From positions 1 to 64,000 of the forward strand of contig CAWIEK010000019.1 of NCBI GenBank assembly GCA_963835065.1: a stretch of 64,000 nt of DNA. Direction: 5' to 3'. Of the stretch, positions 18,343 through 42,016 are shown one piece after another (positions within the stretch are counted from its first letter, which is position 1; each line of letters starts with the position of its first letter). The notes beneath the pieces are model-generated. The model made no database searches. It was not told the origin of the DNA and saw nothing but the letters and a program-made list of their open reading frames with translations. Source of the stretch: an uncultured Chthonomonadaceae bacterium. GTDB taxonomy: Bacteria; Armatimonadota; Chthonomonadetes; Chthonomonadales; Chthonomonadaceae. The translations under genes were made by a program, and so were the position numbers.

Positions 18343-18690
18343 ATGGCCGAAGATCGCGATCTATTACGCGGCAACATTCCTACCCTTATTCTTGCCGTCG
18401 TAAGCGAAGCGCCCCTGCATGGCCTCGCCATTGCCCGCGAAATCAATGAGCGCAGCAACAATGCTCTACAGCTTAAACAAGGCACTTTGTACCCGGCGTT
18501 ACATGCGCTGGAACGAGATGGCTGGATCAGCGGCGCGTGGGAAATCCTCGAAGGGGAGCGGCCCCGCAAAATCTATACCTTGACGCCCGCCGGCATTACC
18601 GAACTGGAACGCAGAATGAGGGCGTGGAAGCAATTCACTGCCGCGATGGAGAGCGTGACAAGGAGCAAGCATCGTGAGCAACCTGCCTGA
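18343..18690 (+). CDS. PadR family transcriptional regulator
   Basis: PLHGLAI, GTLYPALHALERDGWI, RKIYTLTPAG. Confidence 0.95.
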   Translation: MAEDRDLLRGNIPTLILAVVSEAPLHGLAIAREINERSNNALQLKQGTLYPALHALERDGWISGAWEILEGERPRKIYTLTPAGITELERRMRAWKQFTAAMESVTRSKHREQPA

Positions 18691-19384
18691 GTTCCAATGT
18701 CCTGCAAACGACTGGAAGGCGCAGCCGTTTTCGGGTGACGAGCGCGTTGAAGACTATCTGGAACATCTGATCGCGCCCTTGATTGGTGTTGTGCCTTATT
18801 CGGAGCGTAAGGCTTTTCGTCAGGAAGCTCACGCCCATTTGGAAGGGCTGATCCGCGAATATAGCTGGCAGGGGCAAAATGAGCGCGCGGCAACAGAAAG
18901 CGCCTTGCGGGAGTTCGGCGAACCCTGGAAAGTGGGACAAGCCTTCTTACAGGAATGGCTGCAGGGAACTCCCCGCCTGCGTCCCGTCCTGCTGATTCGC
19001 AAAGCGACCTTTACAGCGTTCGCCTGGTTTGGCGCAGCCTCCATGCTGACTCTGCTGCTGCTGGAACAAACGGCGCTTACTCCCGCCCACGATGCTTTGC
19101 TTCCCGGCATCGCGCTGCTGGCCTTCCTGGCTCCCTTCGCCGCCGGCGGCCTGACCGGGGCAATGGCTCCTTTACAGGCGGGGCGCGGGGCGCGTAACGC
19201 GATACTGATTCTGGTCTTACATTCCCTCGCCGCCGGCCTGCTCCTGCAGCCAAAAGTCGAAGGCCTGGCTTTTGCGGGGTGGCAGTTGTTTTTCTGGCTG
19301 CCTGCCGGCTGGGGCAGCGCGGCGGTGACAGCCAAATGTGTACAGCAGGTTCGGCGTCGCCATTTTTGGCAGGTCGCTCGTTAG
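18674..19384 (+). CDS. PadR-associated membrane protein (HAAS/permease-prefix domain)
   Basis: EAHAHLE..ALREFGEP followed by 4 TMs; overlaps padR. Confidence 0.8.
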   Translation: MSNLPEFQCPANDWKAQPFSGDERVEDYLEHLIAPLIGVVPYSERKAFRQEAHAHLEGLIREYSWQGQNERAATESALREFGEPWKVGQAFLQEWLQGTPRLRPVLLIRKATFTAFAWFGAASMLTLLLLEQTALTPAHDALLPGIALLAFLAPFAAGGLTGAMAPLQAGRGARNAILILVLHSLAAGLLLQPKVEGLAFAGWQLFFWLPAGWGSAAVTAKCVQQVRRRHFWQVAR

Positions 19385-19443
19385 CGGTGTTGTGTCAGCA
19401 TCATTGTGGCGCGATGCCGCGCCCACTCAGAAAGGATACGCGC

Positions 19444-20145
19444 ATGAACACACGTTTCTCTCGCTTGCCCGGATTTACCCTCGTCGAGATGTTGGTCGTA
19501 ATTGCCATCATTGGCTTATTGGCGGCTCTGCTTTTCCCCATATTCGCTAAAGTACGCGCCAAAGCGCGACAAACAACGTGTGCCGACAATATGCGCCAAT
19601 TGGGGCAGGCGTTCATCCTGTATGCGCAGGACTACGATCAGTGCCTGCCCGATCAGTGGTCAGGCCGGACGCCGAATGATCTCAATAAATTGGCTATCAG
19701 CAGCGCCTGGGAGACTTACCTGCGCCCCTATACGAAGAGTGTGGAAATCAACCGCTGTCCCGATGACACGCTTTCGGTTCCTCTCAAAGTGCCCGGCACG
19801 AACATCACGCTGTTCAGCTCGTATGCCACGCCCTGGAATGTGCAGGGGAAATCACTGTCCGCCATCCCTGCCTCCGCCGCGACCGTGCTGCTTGCCGAGA
19901 ACATACAATACGATGACCTGGCCGGGGTAAATTGGTTTGTGAAATGGCTTGGATGGCCCAGGATCGAATCCGGTGAGCAATACTCCTCGGTAGTGCCGAT
20001 ATTTCGCCACAACGAAATGGGCAATTATCTCTTTGTGGACACCCATATCAAAGCCCTGCGCGGTCCCAATCCCAGGTTTGCGGGCTACAAAATGGACACA
20101 GATGGCGTCGCTGTGTGTGACACCGGCGATCCGTTGCCACAGTAG
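19444..20145 (+). CDS. Prepilin-type N-terminal cleavage/methylation (DUF1559-like) protein
   Basis: GFTLVEMLVVIAII..ARQTTCADNMRQLG; C-terminal RHNEMGNYLFVDTH. Confidence 0.92.
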   Translation: MNTRFSRLPGFTLVEMLVVIAIIGLLAALLFPIFAKVRAKARQTTCADNMRQLGQAFILYAQDYDQCLPDQWSGRTPNDLNKLAISSAWETYLRPYTKSVEINRCPDDTLSVPLKVPGTNITLFSSYATPWNVQGKSLSAIPASAATVLLAENIQYDDLAGVNWFVKWLGWPRIESGEQYSSVVPIFRHNEMGNYLFVDTHIKALRGPNPRFAGYKMDTDGVAVCDTGDPLPQ

Positions 20146-26450: not shown

Positions 26451-27920
26451 TTACAAACTATGCTGCCACTCTCCCAATCCAATAGCAAGAGCGGCCTCTA
26501 GCCACTCTTCAAAACGTGTTTGTGTTGACGCCGCTGATTCCGCATAGTTAAATTGAAACAGATCGACGCATGGAGAAACGCCGGTATACTCTGTACCGCC
26601 ATCTTCGTGTGATATACGCTGAAATGTGAAAGCCGAGGCGGCCAAAATGCCGTTATATGCAGGACCATAGCCATGGAAACTGACTATTAATTCAAAGCTG
26701 GTTTCAGTATGGATAACCAGGCTTGCCCACGAGCGATAATCAACTGTATTCGCAAAATACCCCAACTGCCGGGCTGTGTCGATAATCTGTCCCGAATAGT
26801 ATATCCGTTTCGAATCCGCATTGTCAGCCTGTTTGGAAACGGCTTTGTAGGCTCTGTCTGCATCGGACGGCGTGAGTTCATAGAGATTCTTGTTCAGGTC
26901 CTCTACCATATCACTGAAACGCTTCACCGTCATAGCCCGCAAAACATCCGCAACCCGAAAGGTTTCGGCCAGGCTCTCTTGTCGCTTTTGCAGCCTGTCT
27001 CGAAGTATTTTTAGACCGCTTTGAAGCGCTTTATCCGCATACCCTGCCTGTCGAACTTGCTGCTCAACTCCTAAAGCCTTCAAGATTGCATCACGTTGAC
27101 GCGCGGCAAACAGATGGATCAACTTGTTCAGGTTGCCATCATCCGCAGTCTCAAGCGCTGCAATGTATTGTTTGCGATCCTCATCCCTGATAACTAAAGG
27201 AAAAAGATCGGCTTTCAGAAAAACCAAAGAGGCAAGAATGCGAGCAACCCGACCATTGCCATCTTGAAAGGGATGAATTTGCGTGAAGCGATGGTGCAGC
27301 CAGGCAGAAAGAACTTCAGGAGCATACTGGCCTTCGTACTCGGCATACCATCCTACCAATTGTTGCATCTCATCACGAACGATTTCTGGAGGTGAATAGA
27401 TGTGCATCTCGCCGTCTTGTCGACGTGGATTGTTAGGAAGTATCTTATAATCGCCACGCCGCAATGGCACTTGGATAATTTTTCCATCCGGTGTCTGAGC
27501 TTCTGTTGATTGCTGATGATCGGTTAGTACCTGATGCATGCCGCGAACGAAATACTCCGTAAAAGGTTGTTCCCCCTTGATGAATTGAAACAGCGCTTCA
27601 ATAGCCTGATATTGGTCATCTATCAAGTTCTTGATATGAGCGGCTTCTTCTCTGCGCAGCCCGGTCGAACTGGCAATCAGAGACGCCTCAATGCCTTGCT
27701 CAATCAGAGTTTCTGTAACGCCTCTGTCCCAATGGTATAGTCTTTCAATAAGACCTGTCTCTATGGCCCACTCACGTTTAAGCTTCTTCAAGAATTCTTC
27801 GTGTTCAGGATGGGTTCTCAAAATCTCGCGCTTTTCGCGCCATACGACAGTCAATGCTTCTAGTTCAGGATTTTTTTGTTGAAACGTGCTGCCCAACATT
27901 GGTTTAATGCGCTCATACAT
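26451..27920 (-). CDS. Fic family protein with C-terminal extension
   Basis: HPFQDGNGRVAR Fic motif; WAIETGLIE; visibly lower GC. Confidence 0.93.
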   Translation of the reverse strand: MYERIKPMLGSTFQQKNPELEALTVVWREKREILRTHPEHEEFLKKLKREWAIETGLIERLYHWDRGVTETLIEQGIEASLIASSTGLRREEAAHIKNLIDDQYQAIEALFQFIKGEQPFTEYFVRGMHQVLTDHQQSTEAQTPDGKIIQVPLRRGDYKILPNNPRRQDGEMHIYSPPEIVRDEMQQLVGWYAEYEGQYAPEVLSAWLHHRFTQIHPFQDGNGRVARILASLVFLKADLFPLVIRDEDRKQYIAALETADDGNLNKLIHLFAARQRDAILKALGVEQQVRQAGYADKALQSGLKILRDRLQKRQESLAETFRVADVLRAMTVKRFSDMVEDLNKNLYELTPSDADRAYKAVSKQADNADSKRIYYSGQIIDTARQLGYFANTVDYRSWASLVIHTETSFELIVSFHGYGPAYNGILAASAFTFQRISHEDGGTEYTGVSPCVDLFQFNYAESAASTQTRFEEWLEAALAIGLGEWQHSL

Positions 27921-28198
27921 GAAGTTGTCTCCAGCATTTTGATCGTAAGCAGGTTCTTAGCCACCAAATATGAAGACATTATACCATTCTCCGGCAATCT
28001 GCTAATGTTCCAACTGGTTGAATTTGCAGCCTACCTCGGTCCTTGTTGTTCGACTTGATTTGTGAAAACTCCTGCCGGATGATTTGTAGTAGCCGTACAG
28101 CAATTTGCAGCAAAACGCTGAACCTTTTTCTTGTTCGGGAACCTATACAGGGTGAAGCAGGCGAGAACATGCGGATATCTGGGCACGGGCGGAGGCAC

Positions 28199-28755
28199 AT
28201 GGAGCGAAGCGACATAGAATTGATGCTGTGCGCGCAAAAGGGCGACCTGTCCGCGTTTCAGGAACTGACCCGGCGATACCGCGAACCCTTGCGTCGTTTT
28301 TTTGCCGCGCTGCTGCTGGAATCCTCCCAAGCGGACGATTGCGTACAGGAAACGTTTCTGCGGCTGTGGCTGCTGCGGCAGGCGTACCAGCCGACGGGCA
28401 AGTTTTCCACCTACCTGTTCCAGATCGGCAAGCACCATCTGCTCAATCACAAGCGCAAACTGCGGCAGGACGCGCAATGCCTGCCGGTTGAACAGGCGCA
28501 AAACGTGGCGATGCCCGAACAAACTCAGCCGGAATGGATTGTGCTGAGATAGACAGGCAAGCGCGGATGCGGCAGGCTATCGGGAAGCTGCCGCTCCATT
28601 TGCGCGAGGTGGTAGAATTGCGTCACACAAAACAATACACGTATGCGGAAATTGCGCAGAAGCTGCAAGTTCCCGTTGGCACGGTGAAATCGCGCCTGTC
28701 GGAAGCGACCCGTCGCTTGAGGCAAGCGTTTTCCGAAGGAGAAACCGAATTATGA
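28199..28755 (+). CDS. ECF sigma factor (frameshift near 28545)
   Basis: Region 2 (ADDCVQETFLRLW, FSTYLFQI) and region 4 (YAEIAQKLQVPVGTVKSRL) in two frames. Confidence 0.9.
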
Positions 28756-30158
28756 ACTATCAGGAACAGGCGCTGGCCTATCTGCGCGGCGAAATGAACG
28801 AGGGCGAGCGCGCGGCGTTTGAAGACGCGCTGTTTCAATCGGAAGAACTGCGAACCGAACTGGAAAGCAGTCGCGCCCTGCTCGACATGCTGGAAGCGGC
28901 CAGTCAGGAAAGCATTACCAAACTGGTCAACGCGCAGATACAACAGGCGATTCGTGACCGCGCCAGCGACATTCACATTCTGCCTGCCGGGGAAAGCCGG
29001 GACGGGCAGGCGGGCGGAAGCGCGGTGGTCAGCTACCGCATTGACGGACGCTTGCAGGAAGTGGGACGGCTGCCCGGCGAACAGTACCGCGCCCTTGTGG
29101 ATCGCTGGAAAGTAATGGCGGAAATGAACGTTGCCGAGCAGAAACTGCCGCAGGACGGGCGTATACTGTGCCGTTATGGGCAGAAAGAGTTTGATCTGCG
29201 CGTTTCCATCCTGCCGACCGTGACCGGGGAGCGGATTACCGCCCGGATTTTAGACAGATCGAATGTGTTTCGGGAGTTGGACACGCTTGGCATGGACGAG
29301 ACGACGCTTGGCGCGGTGAAGCGCCTGATGGAGCGCCCGCATGGGTATGTGATTTTGACGGGCGCGGCGGCAAGCGGCAAAACCACCCTCGCGTATGCCC
29401 TGTTGCGGTATGCGCGAACGATCAGCGCGCCCGCGTCCAATATCCTGACGGTGGAAGACCCCGTTGAGTACCAGATACCGGGCGTATCGCAGGTTCCCGT
29501 CAACCCCCGCTCCGGCCTGACGTATGCCGCCGCCCTGCGCTCCATGATGCGCTCGGACCCCGATATTCTGTATGTGGCGGAGTGTCGCAGCCAGGAAATC
29601 GCGGAACTGAGCATCGAAGCGGCGGTGACAGGCCATCTTGTGCTTTCCATTCTGCACGTTGGGGGCGCGGTGCAAACCGTGCAGCGACTGCGCGACATCG
29701 GTATCGTCAATCATCTGTTGGCAAGCAATCTCGCGGGCGCGATTGGAATGCGCCTTGTGCGGCGCGTCTGCCCCGACTGCTCCGCGCCCTACGTCCCTGC
29801 GGAACGCGACCTGTCCCGCGCCGGCCTGTCCCTGCTGGAAGACGGCCCGTTCCGGCGCGGAACCGGCTGCGACAACTGCCGTCAAACCATGTACCGGGGG
29901 CGGGTCGGCCTGTTTGAAGTGATGGAAGTCAACGAGGCATTACGTACCTTGATTGCCGAACATGCGATGCCGGATGTTCTCTGGCAGCAGGCGTTCGCAA
30001 CGGGCGGTTCCCTGTGGGACGACGCCCGCAACAAAATCCGGCAGGGCTTAATCACCGTTGAAGACGCGGCCTGGGCGCTGTTCGACTACGCGCAGCCCCG
30101 CCGAACCCCTTCCGCCGAACACACATTGGGCGGCATCCTTGATCTAACGGAGTTGTGA
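28752..30158 (+). CDS. Anti-sigma-like N-terminus fused to a GspE/PilB-family ATPase
   Basis: ASDIHI, YRIDG, PQDGR, GAAASGKTT, EDPVEY, SDPD, TGHLV, CPDC..CDNC; N-terminal LAYLRGEM..ERAAFEDAL. Confidence 0.88.
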   Translation: MNYQEQALAYLRGEMNEGERAAFEDALFQSEELRTELESSRALLDMLEAASQESITKLVNAQIQQAIRDRASDIHILPAGESRDGQAGGSAVVSYRIDGRLQEVGRLPGEQYRALVDRWKVMAEMNVAEQKLPQDGRILCRYGQKEFDLRVSILPTVTGERITARILDRSNVFRELDTLGMDETTLGAVKRLMERPHGYVILTGAAASGKTTLAYALLRYARTISAPASNILTVEDPVEYQIPGVSQVPVNPRSGLTYAAALRSMMRSDPDILYVAECRSQEIAELSIEAAVTGHLVLSILHVGGAVQTVQRLRDIGIVNHLLASNLAGAIGMRLVRRVCPDCSAPYVPAERDLSRAGLSLLEDGPFRRGTGCDNCRQTMYRGRVGLFEVMEVNEALRTLIAEHAMPDVLWQQAFATGGSLWDDARNKIRQGLITVEDAAWALFDYAQPRRTPSAEHTLGGILDLTEL

Positions 30159-30309: not shown

Positions 30310-31263
30310 ATGTGGCAGCGATTTACGGAACGGGCGCGGCGAATGGTGTTTTATGCGCAGGAGGAAGCGGGGCGTTTGGGCGAAAACTATGTCTCGACGG
30401 AACACCTGCTGCTTGGACTGTTGCGTGAAAATGACAGCGTAGCCGCGCGTCTTTTGGATCAAATGGGCGTGGCATTGCCAAGTTTGCGCGCTAAAATTGA
30501 GCAGGAAGTGACGCAGGGCGAAGGGCGGTTGGGGCAGGACATGCAGTTGACTCCCCGCTCCAAGCGCGTGATTGATCTGGCGTATGATGAAGCCAAGCAG
30601 CTTAACAACAACTATATCGGCACGGAGCATCTGCTGCTCGGCATGATCCGTGAAGAGGAGGGAGTGGCGGGGCGTATCCTGAAGGAAAGCGGCGTGACGC
30701 TGGAACAAACGCGGCAACTGCTGCGAACGCTTCAAACAGAAGCCGCAAGCAAACCCACGCAGGCGCAGAGCGGGCAGGAAGCAGGCGCTCCCCAGGGTGA
30801 CGCTGCCGACTCCCAACTGACCAGTTTCAAGGAAACGCTGGGCCGCCTTGCCGCCGAAGCGCAATCTCTAAAGTTGAAAATGCAGGGCAGGGAAGCGGGG
30901 ACGGCTTCGGATACAGCGCCACCCGCGATATTCGGCGGGGCGCGCGGCGACATCGGCATTCTGAAAAACGCGGATGAGCGCGGGGTTGTAGAGTTCGTGC
31001 CGTCCGAGTCCGATCTTGCCGCGTTTGAGGACGTAATGCGAATCAAGGACGAGTATGCGTACCGCGAACTGGTCACAAACGGCAAAATCCTGCTGCTGGA
31101 AGCGGGCACACAGGCCAAACTGCTCAAGCGCGGAACCGGCACAACGGACTACGTTCGCATCCTGAGCGGCAAACTGGCGGGCGAAGTTGGCTATGTTCTG
31201 CGAACGGTTCTGCAAGACCTCAAGCCCGATGACCGGCCCTTTCCGCCACCCGTCGCAGACTAG
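30310..31263 (+). CDS. Clp N-terminal (double Clp-repeat) domain protein with unknown C-terminal domain
   Basis: MWQRFTERARR..TEHLLLGL twice; no AAA+ motifs. Confidence 0.9.
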   Translation: MWQRFTERARRMVFYAQEEAGRLGENYVSTEHLLLGLLRENDSVAARLLDQMGVALPSLRAKIEQEVTQGEGRLGQDMQLTPRSKRVIDLAYDEAKQLNNNYIGTEHLLLGMIREEEGVAGRILKESGVTLEQTRQLLRTLQTEAASKPTQAQSGQEAGAPQGDAADSQLTSFKETLGRLAAEAQSLKLKMQGREAGTASDTAPPAIFGGARGDIGILKNADERGVVEFVPSESDLAAFEDVMRIKDEYAYRELVTNGKILLLEAGTQAKLLKRGTGTTDYVRILSGKLAGEVGYVLRTVLQDLKPDDRPFPPPVAD

Positions 31264-31350: not shown

Positions 31351-33493
31351 TCACGCCGTTTGCAGCGCAATCTTCTCGCTCAGGCGGGCGCGGCGGGTGA
31401 ACATGGAGAGGAGTTGAACCTCTTCCTGCGAGAAGGCGCGGCGTTCCTGCGTGTAGATTTCGATCACGCCGACGGTTTGCCGCCCGGATTTCAGAGGAAC
31501 GGCCAGGTAGGAAGTCAGGCGGTCACGGTGCAGCCAGGCGTGGGCGCGGGAACGGGGATCGTCGTCGAGGTTGGGGAGGACGAGGGATTGGCCGCGCTTT
31601 GCCACCCATCCGGCCAGTCCGACGCCCAGAGGGATTTGGTCTTCCGGGGGAACGGTCGGGCGGAAATGGCTTGTCACTTGCAGGCGGAGGCTGTCGCCTT
31701 CCAGCCGGTAAATCGCGCAGCGATCCGCGCGCATGATTTCTACGGCTAAGTCGGCCATTAATTGCGGCAGGTTTTGGGCTTCCAGAGCGGAGCCGATGGC
31801 CTGCGCGACGCGGCGGAAATAGCGGCGCATTTCGTGCGATTTGGAACGCGCTTCCTGATACAGCATCGCGTTGACGACCGCGAACGCGGCTTGATTGGCA
31901 ATCGTGTACAGCAGTTCCATTTCGGCAACGGTGAACAAGCGGCGCTTGCTGCTCATGGCGTGGAGAACGCCGATTACGTCTTCCCCGACCTGCATGGGTA
32001 CGCACAGCGTGGACGCGATCCCCGCCTGGTCAATGGGCGCGCTGCGGTTGCGGGCGTCTGCGGGAACATCCGAAACGGCTGCCGGAGTCTGCCATTCGTA
32101 CACCCACCCCGCAATACCTTCCCCGATGCGCGGATGCGTGGCGGCAAACAGGGATTCGTCCACATGCCGCGACAGGCGCGTTATTAATCGCTCCTCTTCT
32201 TTGTCATACAGCAGCAGGGCGAATTTGTCCACTTTCAGCAGGTTCAAGACGCTTTCGGCAACGAAATTCAATACGCGATCCAGATGCAGGGTGGCGTTGA
32301 CGTGCTGCGATAGATCGTACAGCGCGGTCGCTTCTTCGGCCTGGCGCTGCGCGTCCTCGTACAGCCAGGCGTTTTCAATGGCGATACCGGCCTGCACTCC
32401 GACTGCGGACAACAGTTTCAAGTCATCCGTGTGGTAGGCGCGGCGTTGCAGGCTGGTGACAAGAATCAGGCCATGCGTTTCGTCGCGGCTGCGTATGGGC
32501 GCGATCATGGCGGAAAGGGCGTGGGCGCGTTCGGAAAACGGCTCAAAATCCTCGTCGGTATCAGTATCTTCGATCAGGCGGGGAACGCCGCTGTCCAGAA
32601 CGCGGGCATGAGCGCCCGAATCCACGCTGTACTGAATTTCGCGCTCGTCTTCGGTCAGGCCCCGCTCGGCCGCGATGAACAGGTGCGTTCGCTCGTCATT
32701 GAGCAAAAATAGAATGGCCGTATGGTGTTCCAGATGGGTGCAGATGGCGGCGAGAACGCTGTCCATCACTTCCTGCACGTTCAGACTGCCGGCAATGGTA
32801 TGCGCGGCGTCATACAGCACATCCAGTTCGCGGGACTGTTCGCGCGCCAGTCGCGCCGTGTGTTCCACTGTGCGCGACAGGCCGGCAAATTCCGCCAGCA
32901 GCGTCAGAATTTCCAGATCGTCCTGATCGAACATGGGGGAAGCGGGGAAGCGGGGGAAGAACGGCAGCAGGGGAGGAAGTCTCGGCGGTTTTGTTGGAAG
33001 CGGAAAGCGTGCCGACAATGCGGCCATTGCGGATCAGGGGCACGACGGCAGCCGAACGGGTTCCGGCCTGTTTGTCGTCGGGGGAGGCGATGAGATGCAG
33101 GGGCGCGGACAGCGAATCGGTAGTCCGCCGCTCCGCGCGACGGGCTGGAATTTCGGGCAGAGGTTCTCTGGCAAGGGCAAACAAATCGCCCGATTCATGA
33201 GCCGGGCGCGCATCAAGCAACACGGAACGCCCGGTAGAAATCACGGGTTCGGAAAGCGAATCATTCAAGCGTATGCGCAGACCGACGATCAGGGCGGCGT
33301 TTTCGCCGGCTGCAGCGACAAAATCGAGCATATCGCCTTCGGGGGCAAGCAGGCAAAGGGCCGCGCTGGCCGCATCGGTCAGGCGGCGCGCTTCTTCGAC
33401 GACAATCTGTTCCACGTCGCCCTGTGACAGGGGCGTGGTCAGGCTTTCGGTCAGGCGGCGAATGGCGGCGCGCTGTTGTGCCGCTCGGTTCAT
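31351..33493 (-). CDS. Multi-GAF domain protein (frameshift near 32980)
   Basis: Four tandem GAF-like units (e.g. GEGIAGWV, GVGLAGWVAKRG) across two overlapping ORFs. Confidence 0.85.
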
Positions 33494-33988
33494 AGGCGCG
33501 TTTCCCTCCTCCCTCTCATTTTAGACGATATGCGCAATCGTGTCAAGCGTCTATAGAGTAAAATAGGAGAATAGCCGCGAATGAACGCGAATAAACGCGA
33601 ATGGACTTTCCCTGCTGCGGAATCAGGCGTACAGACGCGCCTATTTAAGTGTGCAGTAAGGTTGTTGAGCAGTGGGCGGTGAAACGCGATACAATTTGGA
33701 GGACTTAAGGACAAAGCAGATAAACACGATACTGCCACGTTCAACGCGGATTATAAAAATCCGGTTATTAGGCCTTCGGCCAATTGTCCTACGGACACAA
33801 GATTGTGCAAAGTTCAAGGGGTTTGTTTATTATCTCTGTGACCCCTCTGTGTCTCTGTGTCTCTGTGGTGAACTTGTATTCGCGTTCATTCGCGTTCATT
33901 CGCGGCTAATTCTTCCTGATTTTCTTTAGCAGTTGCGCGGATGTGAGGGGTGACGGGATGCCACAGATGGGGTAAAACGCAGTCAGAT

Positions 33989-35703
33989 ATGCCGAACCGC
34001 AACGGCACGGACGCCGGAAGGCGAGCTGAAACGCCATCTGGCAAATTTAGGGTTGGACAAGGCGGAAGCGTACCGGAATTGGTGTCGCGCGCAGGGTTTC
34101 AGCGCGAACCTGAACAAAACGTGGCAGGAGCGGCGCGCGGAAGTGCAGGCGGCGCAAAAACAAGCGGCCGGGATGCGGAACGGGGCGAATTGGCGCGGCA
34201 TTGGCAGGCATTGGGATTTGGGGAGGAAGGCGCGTATCTGGAATGGAGCCGTGCGCATGGGTTTGGCGGGAGCGAGCGTAAATCCGCAAAGCAGAAGCGC
34301 ATGGAGAAGGAAAAGCGCGAATTGGAAACCGCGCAAATTGCCCTGAGCCATTCGCGGCAACAGGCGCGCAGACCGGAAAACGCGATTACGCGCCTGTACC
34401 ACGATCCACAGGAAGCCGAGCACGTGAAAACGCCGTACCTGCACAAGATTGGCGAGTTGTTTGCCGGGGAAGTGGACAACGACGTTCGGGACGCGCTGCT
34501 GAAATTGCTATTGCGCGTCCAAGCAGGCGGGCGCTTGTTCGGACTGGAACCCGTAATCGCCGATTTGGGGCACAATCCGGGCAACACGTTTCTGGACGGC
34601 CTTCACGCTCTGGCGCGGCGTCATGCCGATTGGCAGAACTCGCCGGAAGCATGGCAGCCGGACACCCACAACGCGCCCCGTCAATTCGGCGCATTGGCGC
34701 GGCATCTGCTGACACGATACGCGGTTCCCGGCTTTATGGATCGCGTATGGTTTGAGGGCGAGGGGAAACGGGCGGCGCGGCATCAGGATTGGTTTCTGCA
34801 TATCGGCAGGGGGCAAAACATCCGACCGCCGATCTGCCGTTTGCGCTGACGAAAATGGCGGCGCACCAGTTTCTACTGGCTCCCGATGATTTTTCCATCG
34901 AAGCCGCTTTGCGCTGGGGGCAAATTCGCGCGTTGGGCGGGGGTGAATAGCTGGTTCGCGCCGTGATCGCGACCCGGCTGGGGCACGATCTGGAAACCCT
35001 GCCCGACCAGGAGTTCTGGCAGTCCGTCATCCACTTTTTCGTCAACAATCCCATGCTGGACACGGACTGGATCGGCCCGATGGTGGATTTTATCTATGAC
35101 CGCAAGTTTGTGCCGCGCGAAGAAATAGGCCCGGACGGACAACTGACAATTTTGGAGCCGGCGGAGCCGACGTTCAGCATGAAGGGCCGCACAGCCGCGG
35201 CGTTGCAGTTTCGCGTGGAAGCGTGGCATCGGCAGCTTGCGAAAGACACGCGCAAGGGTTTTCGGCAGTGGGAGCCGTCGGGCATCGGGGCTTATGCGGG
35301 GTCGGCTCCCGACCCGAACACGGGCAAAGCGGTGCGCTGGCAGATCGTGGAACTGCTGGACAGCGCGGCCTTGAAAGCGGAGGGCAAAACCATGCACCAC
35401 TGCGTCGCCTCGTATGACCGCTCGTGCGCGCGGGGGCAAACATCCATCTGGTCCATGCGGATTGCAGGCGCGACAGAAGAAACCTATCGCAACGTGATGA
35501 CAATCGCCGTCAACAACGCTTCGCGCACAATAACGCAGGCAAAGGGACGGTGCAACAAAGGGCCGGGCGACAAACGCGCCGGTGACCGCCTGAACTATGC
35601 GCCCCTCCTCCTCAAACAATGGGCCGCGCAGGACAAACTACCGTGCCGAGTTATGTTTGACGGCGGTTTCTACCCTCATCAAAGAAGGAACCTATCCGCA
35701 TGA
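33989..35703 (+). pseudogene. PcfJ-like domain protein, disrupted (frameshifts and an in-frame TAG at 34948-34950)
   Basis: ALRWGQIRALGG, FSMKGRT, LKAEGKTMHHCVASY, SIWSM, ITQAKGRCN. Confidence 0.75.
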
Positions 35704-36663: not shown

Positions 36664-38691
36664 TTGATTGAACAACGCGGTTTGGATACGGATGCGCAGG
36701 ACGCGCCGGAAATAGAAGCGGAGGAGCGGAAGCGGAAGCGGACGCCCTGCCCGAACATTTGCCGCTGCTCCATCGTCTGCGCCAGCGGCTTCTGGGCGAA
36801 GCGCTTTCCAGCGAACACATAGAGCATACGCTGCTTTCCAAGCTGATCGCGCTGCCAGTCTTTTCCTCAGACGCCATTTCTTCGGTCGCTTATGCCACGC
36901 AGGAGATCGTTCTGGTCATGGGCGCGGCGGGATTAGCGGCGGCGGCGGGCGGGGCGTATACCCATTACACGCTGCTCGTTTCCAGCCTGATTGTCGCCCT
37001 GCTTGTCATTGTCGTCACCTCCTACTGGCAGACCATCTTCGCATATCCAAGCGGGGGCGGCAGCTACATCGTTTCCAAAGAAAATCTCGGCACGAACTGG
37101 AGCCTGATTGCGGCAGGGCGCGCTGCTGATTGATTATGTGCTGACCGTTTCCGTTTCCATCGCGTCGGGCGTTCAAAACCTTGCCGGCGTTCCCTTTTTG
37201 ACGCGCTTTCACCCGGACAAGCACCTGGTTCCCATCTGCCTGTTTTTCATCGTGCTGTTGATTATTGCCAACCTGCGCGGATTGAAGGAGTCGGGGTCGC
37301 TGTTCGCCGTTCCAACGTATGTGTTTGTCGGCATGTGCTATCTGATGATCGGGCTGGGATTGTTCGGCGGGCTGATAAACTATCACAACCATCTGGAAGA
37401 AATCAACAACGTTGCCCGAAATATGCCGGAAGAATGGAAGAACGCGCAGCGCAATGTGGGCGCAGTCGGCGTATTGGTGCTGATGCGCGCGTTTGCCAAC
37501 GGCTGTTCTGCCATGACCGGAACCGAAGCCGTCAGCAACGGTATCCCCGCTTTTCAGGAACCCAAGTCCAAAAACGCCGCGCAAACCCTGCTGGCGATGG
37601 GCCTTATTTTGGGAACGCTGTTTATGGGCGTTTCCCTGCTCGCCACCCATCTGCATGTCGTGTATTACGACGGCGCTCCGGCTGTGATTGACCAGCTTTC
37701 CGGCGCGGTGTTCGGCAAAACCGGCGGCATGAGCATTTTGTACCTGATTACGCAGTTCTTTACCGCCGCCATTCTGGTGCTTGCCGCCAATACCAGTTTC
37801 GCCGACTTTCCGCGCCTGTCGTCCATTCTGGCGCGCGACAGTTTCCTGCCCAAGCAGTTCCATAAATTAGGAGACCGCCTCGTTTTTAGCAACGGCATTA
37901 TGATTTTGGGCGTATTCGCGGGTGTGCTGCTTGTGGTCAAGCGGGGCAATGTGGACGCGCTAATTCCCCTTTACGCAACGGGCGTGTTCACGGCCTTCAC
38001 GCTGTCGCAGGCGGGCATGGTGCATCACTGGCTCAAACTCAAGGCCGACCCGGAAGCGGGCAAGGGCTGGCAATGGCGCATGGCGGTCAATGGCCTGGGC
38101 GCGGCTGTCACCTTCATCGTCTTGTGTACGATCCTGATTGAGAAGTTCCGGGAGGGCGCGTGGATCAGCGTCCTGCTGACGGGCCTGCTGTTTTTCATGT
38201 TCAAGAAAATCCATCAGCACTATACGGATGTGGTGGAAGAAGACAAACTTGTTGCGCCGGACCCCGACCCGCCCTCCCAAAACACCGTCTTGGTGCTGGT
38301 TGGAACGCTGCATCAGGGTTCGATACGCGCGCTGGAATATGGCAAACTGCTGGCTCCCGATTGCCGCGCCGTGCATGTGGACACGGAACCCGAAGCGAGT
38401 AAAAAACTTCAGGAGCAGTGGCCGACATTGGGGCAGGGCATGCCGCTCGTGATTCTGCCCTCGCCCTACCGTCAGGTGGCGCGGCCCGTGAAGCGCTACG
38501 TGACCCAGGTTCACAAAGAACATGACAACGATTACGTGACCCTCATCATTCCCGAAGCCGTGACCGAAAAAGGCTGGCAGCAGCTTCTGCACGGGCAAAT
38601 CGGCCTGCGCCTGAAGCTGGCGTTCCTGAACCGCTCGGACGTAATCATTTCCAACGTGCGTTACCGTCTACAGCCGCCCCGCAAAAGGTGA
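36664..38691 (+). CDS. APC-family K+ transporter, KimA/YdaO-like (frameshifted)
   Basis: SSDAISSVAYA, AYPSGGGSY, MTGTEAVSNG, NTSFADFPRL, SPYR. Confidence 0.9.
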
Positions 38692-39577: not shown

Positions 39578-40261
39578 ATGACACGGAAGAAACAGACACG
39601 CGGGCGCTGCGCGTACTGTCAGCGCGAAATGACGCGGGGAGGCATGTCGCGCCATCTGCCGGAATGTGCCGCGCGACAGCAGGCCATTGCCACTGCGGAA
39701 AGCGGAAAAGGCCGAACGCAACCGCTTTATCATCTTCAGGTGCAGGATGCGTGGGGCGGCGAGTATTGGCTGCACCTGGAAATGAACGGCCTGGCCCGAT
39801 TGCAGCAGTTGGACAGTTACCTGCGCGCCATCTGGCTGGAGTGCTGCGGCCATCTCAGTGCATTCTACCAGGATAAGCGCTATGGCGGCGAAGTTGCTAT
39901 GACGAAAACGGCGGAAACCGTTCTGCGCCCCGATATGCAGTTGGTGCACATCTACGATTTCGGCACGTCCTCGGAAACCGTTATCAAGGTCGTGGGCATG
40001 CGCAAGGGCAAGCCGACAACCCCGCATCCGATTGCGCTGATGGCGCGTAACGACACGCCGGAAGCCGCCTGCATGGAGTGCGGCAAACCCGCAACGCGGC
40101 AGTGCATCGAGTGCCTGTACGAAACGGAGGATTCGGGCGAGTTGTGCGACGAACACGCGGAAGAACACCCACATGACAATTACGGCGAACCCGTTCCCCT
40201 GGTAAACTCGCCGCGCATGGGCATGTGCGGCTACGATGGCCCTGCCGAGCCGCCCTACTGA
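39578..40261 (+). CDS. Cys-rich pRiA4b ORF-3-like protein
   Basis: LDSYLRAIWLECCGHLSAF, YDFGTSS, several CxxC, PLVNSPRMGMCGY. Confidence 0.75.
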   Translation: MTRKKQTRGRCAYCQREMTRGGMSRHLPECAARQQAIATAESGKGRTQPLYHLQVQDAWGGEYWLHLEMNGLARLQQLDSYLRAIWLECCGHLSAFYQDKRYGGEVAMTKTAETVLRPDMQLVHIYDFGTSSETVIKVVGMRKGKPTTPHPIALMARNDTPEAACMECGKPATRQCIECLYETEDSGELCDEHAEEHPHDNYGEPVPLVNSPRMGMCGYDGPAEPPY

Positions 40262-40301
40262 CGGCTTTCTTTTTCTGGTTCTGAATGGAGAAACCAAATT
40301 G

Positions 40302-42016
40302 ATGTATCGCCCGTTGCGCGTCCTGCGCTGTGCCTCCTTCCTGCACACCGTAAATCGCGCTGCTGCTTTCCGATTGTGCTTACTGTTGGTTCTGACGGTG
40401 TTTACAGCCGCCGCCAATGCGCAGCGAAACCGACAGGGAAACGCGCCGCCCGGTTCCGCTCCCGGCGCGAACCCGGCGGCGTCCATAACCCTGACGCCTG
40501 CGCCGAATTCTGCGCCCATCAGAGAAGCCGCGCCGCCGGTTGACACGCGGCATGAAATCACAGTTCACGGGATCGCCGCTCCCTTACATCGTCACGACGG
40601 GCATGATGCCGCTGAAGGGCGCGACGGGCGAAACCGAAGCCAACGTGTTCTTTGTCGCCTATCATCGCACGGACGGCAAGAGCAATGACGCCGATCCTCA
40701 CCGCCCGCTTGTATTCGCGTTCAATGGCGGGCCGGGATCGGCGTCCGTTTGGCTGCACCTGGGCGCAATCGGACCGAAACGGGTGCAGATGCTGCCGGAT
40801 GGCGGCCTGCCGCCCCCGCCCTATCATCTTGTGGACAACGAGCAGACGTGGCTGGATCAGGCGGATCTGGTCTTTCTCGACCCGGTCGGAACCGGCTACA
40901 GCCGCCCGACAAAACCGGAATACGGCGCGAAGTTCTGGGGCTTGCAGGGGGATATTGCGGCTGCGGGCGATTTTATCCGCCTGTACCTGACCCGCTACAA
41001 GCGCTGGTCTTCGCCCCTGTTTCTGGCCGGGGAAAGCTACGGCACGACGCGGGCGGCGGGACTGTCCAACTACCTTGTGGAACATGGTATCGCCCTCAAC
41101 GGCATCGCCCTGCTCAGTTCCGTGCTGAATTTCCAGACGCTGGAGTTCCGTCCGGGCAACGATCTGCCCTACATGCTGTTCCTGCCGACCTATACCGCCA
41201 CCGCCTGGTATCACCACAAACTGCCCGACGCGCTGCAAAAAGACCTGAATTCCACGCTGAAAGAAGCGGAAAATTGGGCGCAAACCGATTACGCGAACGC
41301 GCTGGCGCAGGGAGACCGCCTGACCGGGGCGCAGCGGCAGGCCGTGATTGACAAAATGGCGCGATACACGGGATTGTCGAAAACCTATCTGGACAACAGC
41401 GACCTGCGCGTGGACATCGAGAGTTTTTGCAAGGAATTGCTGCGGGACCGCAAACGCTCCGTAGGCCGCCTGGACAGCCGCTTTGTCGGGCTTGACTCGT
41501 CCAACGTTTCGCAGACGCCCGACTTCGATCCGAGCCAGTCCGCCATACGCCCTCCGTATACCGCGATGATGAATATGTATGCGCGGGAAGAACTGAACTT
41601 TGAGTTCGGACGAGGAGTATTACGTGCTGGGAGGAGGCATCAAAACGCCGTGGGATTGGGGCACACGGGGGCAGGGGTTTGCGAACGTCAGCGAATCTCT
41701 GCGCAGCGCGTTTGCCAAAAACCCGTACATGAAACTGTTCGTGGCGGAAGGGTATTACGACCTGGCAACGCCGTACTTTGCCGCGCAGTACACTGTCGCG
41801 CATCTGGGACTCGACCCTACCCTGCGCGCCAACATCACCACAGGCCAGTATGCGGCAGGCCACATGATGTACATTGATACGGCTTCCCTGGCGAAACTGA
41901 AATCGGACGTGTCGCAATTCCTGCAAAGCGCGATTCAACCGTCCGGGGCAGCCCGCAATCCGCCGTCGTTGGCAGTGTCAGTAACCGCAAATCGCCGTAA
42001 AGCCGAATTGAGTTAG
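40302..42016 (+). CDS. S10 serine carboxypeptidase (two frameshifts)
   Basis: FNGGPGSAS, DPVGTGYS, GESYGTTR; GYYDLATP and AGHMMY in a later frame. Confidence 0.92.

Follow-up and report, generated by a model that had tools for sequence, protein, structure and literature searches.

An anti-sigma-like domain fused to a PilB-type ATPase accompanies an ECF sigma factor gene in Armatimonadota

Sigma factors of the extracytoplasmic function (ECF) type count among the chief signalling devices in bacteria. Here we describe an ECF locus within a 64,000-nucleotide stretch of DNA from an uncultured Chthonomonadaceae bacterium of the phylum Armatimonadota (positions 1 to 64,000 of contig CAWIEK010000019.1, assembly GCA_963835065.1; hereafter the window). 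The locus comprises an ECF sigma gene with a promoter-like element upstream, followed by an intact open reading frame (ORF; 28752-30158) whose ATG overlaps the sigma TGA and whose 468-amino-acid product joins an anti-sigma-like head to a body of the PilB/GspE type (Table 1). An earlier note on this DNA, made from the sequence alone, had reported the ATGA overlap of sigma stop and ATPase start (28752-28755), which we confirm, and had taken the protein to be a soluble anti-sigma factor built on a secretion ATPase and sensing nucleotide or pilus state.

Table 1 Features of the sigma factor–ATPase fusion locus (positions in the window unless given as residues of the fusion protein)
Feature	Position	Strand	Remarks
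ECF-type operon promoter	28120..28147	+	-35 GAACCTTTT (28120-28128), -10 region AACCTATA (28140-28147)
ECF sigma gene, 5' half (sigma-2)	28199..28552	+	ends at premature TAG 28550-28552; Sigma70_r2 E 4.2e-13
ECF sigma gene, 3' half (sigma-4)	28553..28755	+	different frame; Sigma70_r4_2 E 4.7e-15; TGA overlaps next ATG
Zinc-free class I anti-sigma-like head, residues 1-50	28752..28901	+	helices 3-11, 17-29, 31 onward; dN/dS 0.10
PilB/GspE-type N2D and ATPase core without N1/MshEN	28902..30158	+	T2SSE E 7.9e-98, residues 49-439
First N2D helix	~residues 53-68		
Walker A	29361-29384	+	
Asp box	near 29454	+	
Walker B and catalytic Glu	29565-29582	+	
His box	29634-29657	+	
Four-cysteine zinc site	29769-29879	+	
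Double Clp_N-domain protein	30310..31263	+	152 nt downstream of fusion gene; Clp_N E 8.2e-36

In class I anti-sigma domains, according to the available part of PMC7406223, three bundled helices contact sigma-4 and a helix 4 on a flexible linker contacts sigma-2, with zinc and zinc-free domains mixing within one group. The proposal that the first ~50 residues of the fusion protein resemble such a domain is borne out by several comparisons. The zf-HC2 model matches this head at E 5.3e-4 (20.5 bits, below the cut-off of 22.2) and the first 52 residues of 19 of 23 members at E values up to 1, and the heads of zinc-type homologues exceed its cut-off; the NCBIfam anti-sigma model NF052375 covers residues 8-73 at E 6.5e-6, again below its own cut-off. 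A wider head profile run against Protein Data Bank (PDB) sequences retrieved RslA at E 2.5e-5, and this partner of SigL from Mycobacterium tuberculosis (3hug, group ECF17) is the best match of the head by sequence profile and structure. In a structure comparison across 48,161 chains, RslA again came first (Z 6.1, rmsd 5.2, 61 aligned), followed by RsiW (Z 5.6, rmsd 4.3, 68 aligned), and the ten best Foldseek rows for the modelled head were all anti-sigma chains, including RslA, RskA and MucA (E 0.25-2.0), with no match at E 0.001 or better. When 1.8 billion representatives were searched with a profile of the first 52 residues, the fusion family was recovered first, and then zf-HC2, FecR or RskA_C proteins together with fusions carrying the full HxxxCxxC motif. 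The zinc-free head profile by itself matched no anti-sigma among PDB sequences and nothing further in this genome, and the ESM Atlas returned nothing usable for residues 1-75. Taken together, these matches, individually modest in score, show the head to be a homologue of class I anti-sigma domains. We predict with high confidence that it inhibits the ECF sigma factor.

Residues within the head are strongly conserved, Y10 being present in 102 and E14 in all 103 of 103 full-length proteins. The HxxxCxxC zinc motif is missing from the window protein, kept in 31 of 47 fused loci, and present in 101 of 103 further full-length proteins (a set that overlaps the 47 loci). In the structural model, a single continuous helix spans residues 31-68, such that helix 3 runs into the first N2D helix without a flexible linker; the NF052375 match, in reaching residue 73, would place this N2D helix in the register of helix 4, and helix 4 of RsiW aligns with it weakly (E 0.15). 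A complex prediction that paired the intact sigma factor of a relative (7-row alignment) with the 52-residue head (23 rows) gave a best score of 0.12 against a mark of 0.32, no controls having been folded.

As the earlier note had stated, the head stands in place of the N1/MshEN domain: the T2SSE match begins at residue 49 and, unlike the genome's canonical PilB, the fusion protein gives no MshEN (PF05157) match. The body (mean pLDDT of the structure model 89.5) has PilB 5tsh as its best Foldseek match (E 3.5e-45, rmsd 2.5), and it shares with PilB and GspE (5tsh, 5oiu, 1p9r) the N2D and RecA-like core, at about 40% identity and TM-scores of 0.75-0.77, together with the four-cysteine zinc site. 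It differs from them in its head, in scores far below the NCBIfam equivalog cut-offs (TIGR02538, TIGR02533; 400 vs 630 for GspE, 351 vs 676 for PilB), in the catalytic decay seen across the family and in lying outside pil/gsp operons. Consistent with this last point, the gene is not located inside a pilC/gspF operon, and no pilC or gspF was found among the 13 neighbouring ORFs scanned (16 to 36.5 kb), as previously noted. The protein also appears soluble, as had been suggested: a 19-residue hydropathy window exceeds 1.9 in none of the 65 family proteins.

Residue roles were mapped from Geobacter PilB, using the available part of PMC5424180. The motif strings GAAASGKTT and YVAECRSQE, on which the description of the ATPase motifs as drifted was based, are indeed present, but the degree of drift was overstated, since all eight catalytic residues are kept in this copy: two Arg fingers (R150, R165), the Walker A Lys (K210), the Asp-box Glu pair (E235, E239), the catalytic Glu (E277) and the His-box His pair (H295, H302). 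The changes fall at flanking positions (P-loop PTG to AAA, G276A, T300I, D280S). Across the family, at least one of the eight was lost in 36 of 65 proteins (24/35 zinc-free and 12/30 zinc-type members) compared with 0/92 canonical controls, and in 43 of 103 further full-length proteins that are in part the same ones. The residue table behind the 65-protein counts omits five loci of less than 400 amino acids (three at contig ends, two frameshifted), and the controls were reduced from 93 to 92 by dropping one degenerate PilB copy of this genome. Losses were more frequent for E277 (19/65) and H302 (16/65); E235 is kept in 65/65 and K210 in 57/65. Compared with the catalytic Glu and H302, the zinc cysteines (92-95%), R334 (63/65) and E282 (the equivalent of PilB pore residue E400; 58/65) are better preserved; in many lineages hydrolysis therefore seems dispensable, whereas the architecture is retained. 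With a dN/dS of 0.11 relative to a same-genus relative, the ATPase gene is under purifying selection.

The extent to which this fusion recurs was determined by searching 401 Armatimonadota genomes with a head-plus-junction profile, 13 candidates being scored per genome. Full-span matches at E <1e-17 were found in 41 genomes and one more was added by inspection, so that the fusion occurs in at least 42 of the 401 (about a tenth), spread over 19 of 49 families. Among the 48 loci examined, 47 show the fusion and the remaining one runs into a contig end after the head. An ECF gene lies directly upstream in 46 of the 47 fused loci, within 4 nt or overlapping in 37 of these 46 by the start calls of this analysis, and downstream in the other. 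The expectation that homologues of the fusion would be linked to ECF genes was thus confirmed, with a single ECF family adjoining in 47 of 47 loci. In a quick tree from which the window's split sigma gene was left out, the fusion-linked sigma factors form one branch (44 rows, SH-aLRT 93). Among the database matches listed, all 120 carry T2SSE and every phylum named is Armatimonadota, the phylum to which the genome-by-genome search was confined. No neighbouring gene is kept beyond close kin across the 48 loci. An assembly-made chimera was considered and rejected: the first 110 residues were matched by 19 proteins, and full-length relatives number more than 100. Two variants were also seen: a database fragment (P0073) in which sigma region 4 is in frame with a zinc head and the start of the ATPase, representing either a genuine three-part fusion or the result of an indel where the two genes overlap, and a locus (L022, 5648-5971, plus strand) in which a helical-looking ORF of 107 amino acids with no family label lies between the sigma and fusion genes.

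The sigma gene itself is not the intact unit that it had been assumed to be. Its span (28199-28755) is 557 nt, so that in this assembly it is frameshifted and its translation is split by the premature TAG into two frames; in seven of seven relatives aligned it is a single open frame. The make-up is that of a group 4 ECF sigma factor, with sigma-2 and sigma-4 only in about 185 amino acids, although in this copy the frameshift splits it, and the intact sigma factor of a relative scores 95.8 bits against the TIGR02937 cut-off of 42.9. Among solved sigma factors SigL is not the closest to this one, SigW and AlgU scoring higher. An assembly error or a very recent loss would fit the sequence data, because dN/dS relative to the same-genus relative is low in both halves (0.10 for the 5' half, 0.16 for the 3' half), because frameshifts in this assembly also affect 3 of 20 further ORFs for which that relative served as the comparison, and because a close strain shows a net extra base at the frameshift spot (one contig, depth ~5). 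Elsewhere in the window, a multi-GAF gene (31351-33493) and a PcfJ-like gene (33950-35703) are frameshifted with respect to intact same-genus orthologues, suggesting indel errors in this assembly. Two further genes, which from their sequences rather than a domain scan we take to be transporter-like (36759-38691) and peptidase-like (40236-42016), are apparently split over at least two frames in the ORF list.

Upstream of the operons, a Gibbs sampler placed a GAACCT-type -35 element, followed about 16 bp on by a -10 element, in the 44 regions examined. The derived pattern matches 36 of the 44, as against 1.0 on average after shuffling, although this comparison is in part circular. In a cleaner test, the window's site, when left out of training, was still the top-scoring site in the whole 8.0-Mb genome. 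The -10 element differs by clade, being mostly CRTT in the zinc-type and RACYT in the zinc-free loci, as expected if each sigma factor reads its own promoter, and at the locus with swapped gene order the fusion and sigma genes each have their own promoter copy. The conserved promoter points to autoregulation, the operon likely being read by its own sigma factor. The zinc-type promoters resemble the ECF17 consensus (TGAACC / CGT in the available part of the PMC7826278 supplement), the sole likeness to ECF17 found and one based on the promoter alone. Searches for a wider regulon were negative: a genome-wide matrix scan gave 10 matches at score ≥18 against 10 in the control, and strict patterns in 5 + 5 genomes gave no excess over controls. 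The only promoter found for the sigma factor, in four of five zinc-type genomes and in this genome, is that before its own operon.

A multi-copy element in this genome combines the same -35 with a different -10, with 55 sites of the form GAACCTTTT..YGTCTA compared with 0 in the control, spread over many contigs (for example C9:73706-73732 and C44:334375-334401). The genus has three genomes, with 54, 2 and 1 copies of the strict pattern; none of 38 other relatives has more than 1. Among the 42 ECF-like genes scanned, only this sigma gene has a GAACCTTT site upstream. This sigma factor may drive the element, although we consider this rather doubtful. Another ECF gene, on contig C44, was rejected as a reader of the element's promoter: GAAC..TCT lies upstream in just 3 of 23 orthologous loci and is not a conserved self-promoter.

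A second locus of this genome (contig C31, 3699-5957, minus strand) encodes the closest paralogous sigma factor, a stand-alone zinc anti-sigma whose tail is probably a coiled coil, and a divergent PilT-like ATPase. Of the best 30 loci from a search of the 401 genomes, 20 are of this ECF / zinc anti-sigma / divergent PilT kind, with the ECF gene upstream in 19 and the zinc anti-sigma gene upstream in 18, one lying at a contig end; the other 10 are ordinary PilT genes with no ECF gene in the 1.5 kb upstream. In the sigma tree, the PilT-system factors make up a separate branch (SH-aLRT 93) next to the fusion sigma factors, and a further branch (SH-aLRT 91) unites both groups with one other sigma factor. 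Their promoter differs (GAAKCA..CGTT), with no regulon excess over controls in 5 genomes, and both systems are found together in four genomes. This looks like a second undescribed ECF system linked to a pilus ATPase, and it, like the sigma frameshift, the zinc-binding majority of the family and the conserved promoter, had escaped the earlier note.

Other ties to pilus proteins were apparent. Two PilT-linked operons (L316:395-1468 and L332:577-1176, both plus strand) encode a longer zinc anti-sigma, one of which contains a full MshEN domain (E 5.7e-19), hinting at an input from c-di-GMP or a motor platform. At one fusion locus (L281:1-1593, minus strand), a gene in which PilC (two T2SSF domains) is fused to a degenerate PilB overlaps the end of the fusion gene and is cut by the contig end, and another locus adds a second MshEN-free PilB. 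An ATPase tree, built after dropping half of the control sequences from outside Armatimonadota, joins the main pilus operon's canonical PilB to three zinc-type fusions (SH-aLRT 91). Separately, between pilB and pilT of this genome's main type IV pilus operon lies a second PilB copy (C39:32712-34097) that is MshEN-free and catalytically degenerate.

Known systems share parts of this arrangement. In RsiW/SigW (5wuq), RskA/SigK (4nqw), MucA/AlgU (6in7) and ChrR/SigE (2q1z), a three-helix head is likewise encoded right after the ECF gene; there, however, helix 4 on a flexible linker binds sigma-2, whereas the window protein has its first N2D helix at this position. In none of these four anti-sigma factors is the partner domain a secretion-superfamily ATPase; ChrR, which is soluble, has a cupin. 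RslA, whose solved complex is with the -35-binding sigma domain alone (according to the PDB entry title), is labelled in the PDB as a membrane protein and has a zinc motif, in contrast to the window protein, which is soluble, belongs to a zinc-free clade and carries a 400-amino-acid motor ATPase. In the FlgM / sigma-28 flagellar checkpoint and in the ExsD-ExsC-ExsE system of type III secretion, a soluble inhibitor makes the activity of a transcription factor depend on what state a surface machine is in; this works by exporting the inhibitor or a partner, and structural genes are driven. The logic that we propose below is similar, but the proteins are unrelated, there is no sign of export, and the searches revealed no regulon of structural genes for the fusion system. 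ECF254, according to the available part of the PMC7826278 supplement, is encoded near type IV pilus genes with a membrane DUF4367 protein as its putative anti-sigma; it thus shares proximity to pilus genes but, in that part of the source, lacks an ATPase fusion.

Taking these data together, we propose, with roughly even confidence, that the locus encodes a two-gene, likely self-regulating switch, in which the ECF sigma factor is held by a soluble anti-sigma head on a PilB-type ATPase and is freed when the body engages pilus-motor partners. Like RslA, the head would use its helices 1-3 to clamp sigma region 4. The first N2D helix would take the place of helix 4, such that N2D packing in a hexamer would either rival or precede the capture of sigma region 2. 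Since its architectural and pore residues are kept better than the catalytic ones, the body would act as a binding or conformational module, co-assembling with the cell's PilB or docking on PilC. The freed sigma factor would then transcribe its own operon, leading to more inhibitor and closing a negative-feedback loop, which the frameshift would, on paper, break in this assembly. A broader version, which we regard as speculative and hold only tentatively, is that Armatimonadota have paired ECF circuits, PilB-like and PilT-like, that read the extension and retraction motors of type IV pili directly by partner capture, and whose output in this genus may include the multi-copy small-RNA element.

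Several observations count against the proposed switch. Both the binding of sigma and the contact with PilB or PilC are predictions from sequence. The Z scores of 6.1 and 5.6 are modest, in the range usual for short helical folds; the predicted structure has neither a separate helix 4 nor a flexible linker, and the first N2D helix is not clearly different from that of an ordinary PilB, so that the helix-4 match may reflect merely an amphipathic helix. All eight catalytic residues are kept in 29 of 65 members, this one included, which suits an active enzyme equally well, and the second pore residue (the D398 equivalent) is a Ser in this copy. The trees are quick searches with long branches, and related loci are not independent. 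Finally, the next downstream gene is not a pilus gene in 45 of 47 loci, and the promoter is not enriched at pilus genes: it scores ≥10 at 1 of 77 prepilin-like ORFs compared with 3.1% of other ORFs, and below 3 at the core pil operons.

Some of these observations would be accounted for if the ATPase body alone were a self-assembling nucleotide sensor, in which opening and closing of the hexamer, driven by ATP and ADP, bound or freed the sigma factor without a pilus partner. The stand-alone two-gene unit with its unconserved neighbours, the well-kept nucleotide-binding residues E235 and K210 and the lack of promoter copies at pilus genes all agree with such a sensor, which we nevertheless judge unlikely: it leaves unexplained the PilT-paired sigma clade, the MshEN domain in one anti-sigma and the PilC-PilB fusion in one operon, and 8 of the 65 members have lost the Walker A Lys. 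A pilus link is favoured because the related sigma factors are recurrently tied to PilB-, PilT-, MshEN- and PilC-derived parts. It is similarly improbable, in our view, that the ATPase is the output of the circuit, as an accessory PilB without MshEN (either a motor blind to c-di-GMP or one that brakes the main motor), with the head sensing zinc or redox in the zinc-type and proteolysis in the zinc-free proteins, and the fusion tying the two doses together. The apparent regulon, being without pilus genes, keeps this reading alive, as the only promoter found precedes the operon itself and the ATPase is therefore its one clear product; in the PilT system the anti-sigma and the ATPase are separate genes, two loci carry further PilB-like genes, and a Clp_N protein follows in four close loci. 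Yet this last neighbour is not conserved beyond close kin, the zinc ligands are lost in 16 of 48 loci while the fusion is kept with the ATPase body as the sole other domain, and an inhibitor that was the sole effector would still couple sigma activity to the site at which the ATPase engages.

The frameshifted sigma gene, the zf-HC2 score below the family cut-off and the lack of a separate helix 4 could also be explained by a head that no longer inhibits sigma and is a mere structural replacement of N1, or by a locus that is dead as a sigma pseudogene. This we think very unlikely given the strong conservation of Y10 and E14, the dN/dS of 0.10-0.16 across both sigma halves, head and ATPase, the frameshifts in 3 of 20 other ORFs and the extra base in the close-strain contig (depth ~5).

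As for the surroundings of the locus, the gene for the double Clp_N-domain protein may be a third operon member in this bacterial family only; as a core part of the system it was rejected, because it lies directly downstream in just 4 of 48 loci, all close kin. On the other side, divergent from the sigma promoter, a Fic-domain gene (26451-27920, minus strand) occupies a stretch of lower GC (0.50) and is not at this place in the same-genus relative. Further upstream (18343-20145, plus strand), genes for a PadR regulator, a small membrane-like protein and a prepilin-type DUF1559 protein are consecutive, the last being one of the genome's 77 prepilin-like ORFs.

The fusion is not described in the literature searched, which largely excluded subscription journals. 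In the ECF classification (PMC7826278), 'ATPase' does not occur in the main text, T2SSE, PilB and GspE do not occur in the supplement parts covered, and none of the supplement's 13 mentions of 'ATPase' and 7 of 'type IV pil' in those parts concerns such a fusion. Fusions that join anti-sigma heads to a variety of domains are already known; the PilB-type partner appears to be new, with a real chance that it represents a new type of signal input.

The link from motor state to transcription in type IV pili is usually explained by two-component or second-messenger relays. If the proposed switch is correct, an inhibitor that has a pilus-motor ATPase as its body would provide a new ECF input and a direct route from motor state to transcription, adding to the redox, partner-switching and mechanosensing-complex signals to which soluble ECF inhibitors respond, according to the available part of PMC8999054. 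Because it consists of just two small soluble proteins and a short promoter, the system could be rebuilt in E. coli despite its mostly uncultured hosts, and the natural variants with and without zinc ligands or catalytic residues would provide ready-made controls. The PilT-linked ECF system in Armatimonadota is new in this analysis and, should paired PilB and PilT circuits prove real, they would constitute a transcriptional checkpoint for pilus motors, similar to that of FlgM but without export.

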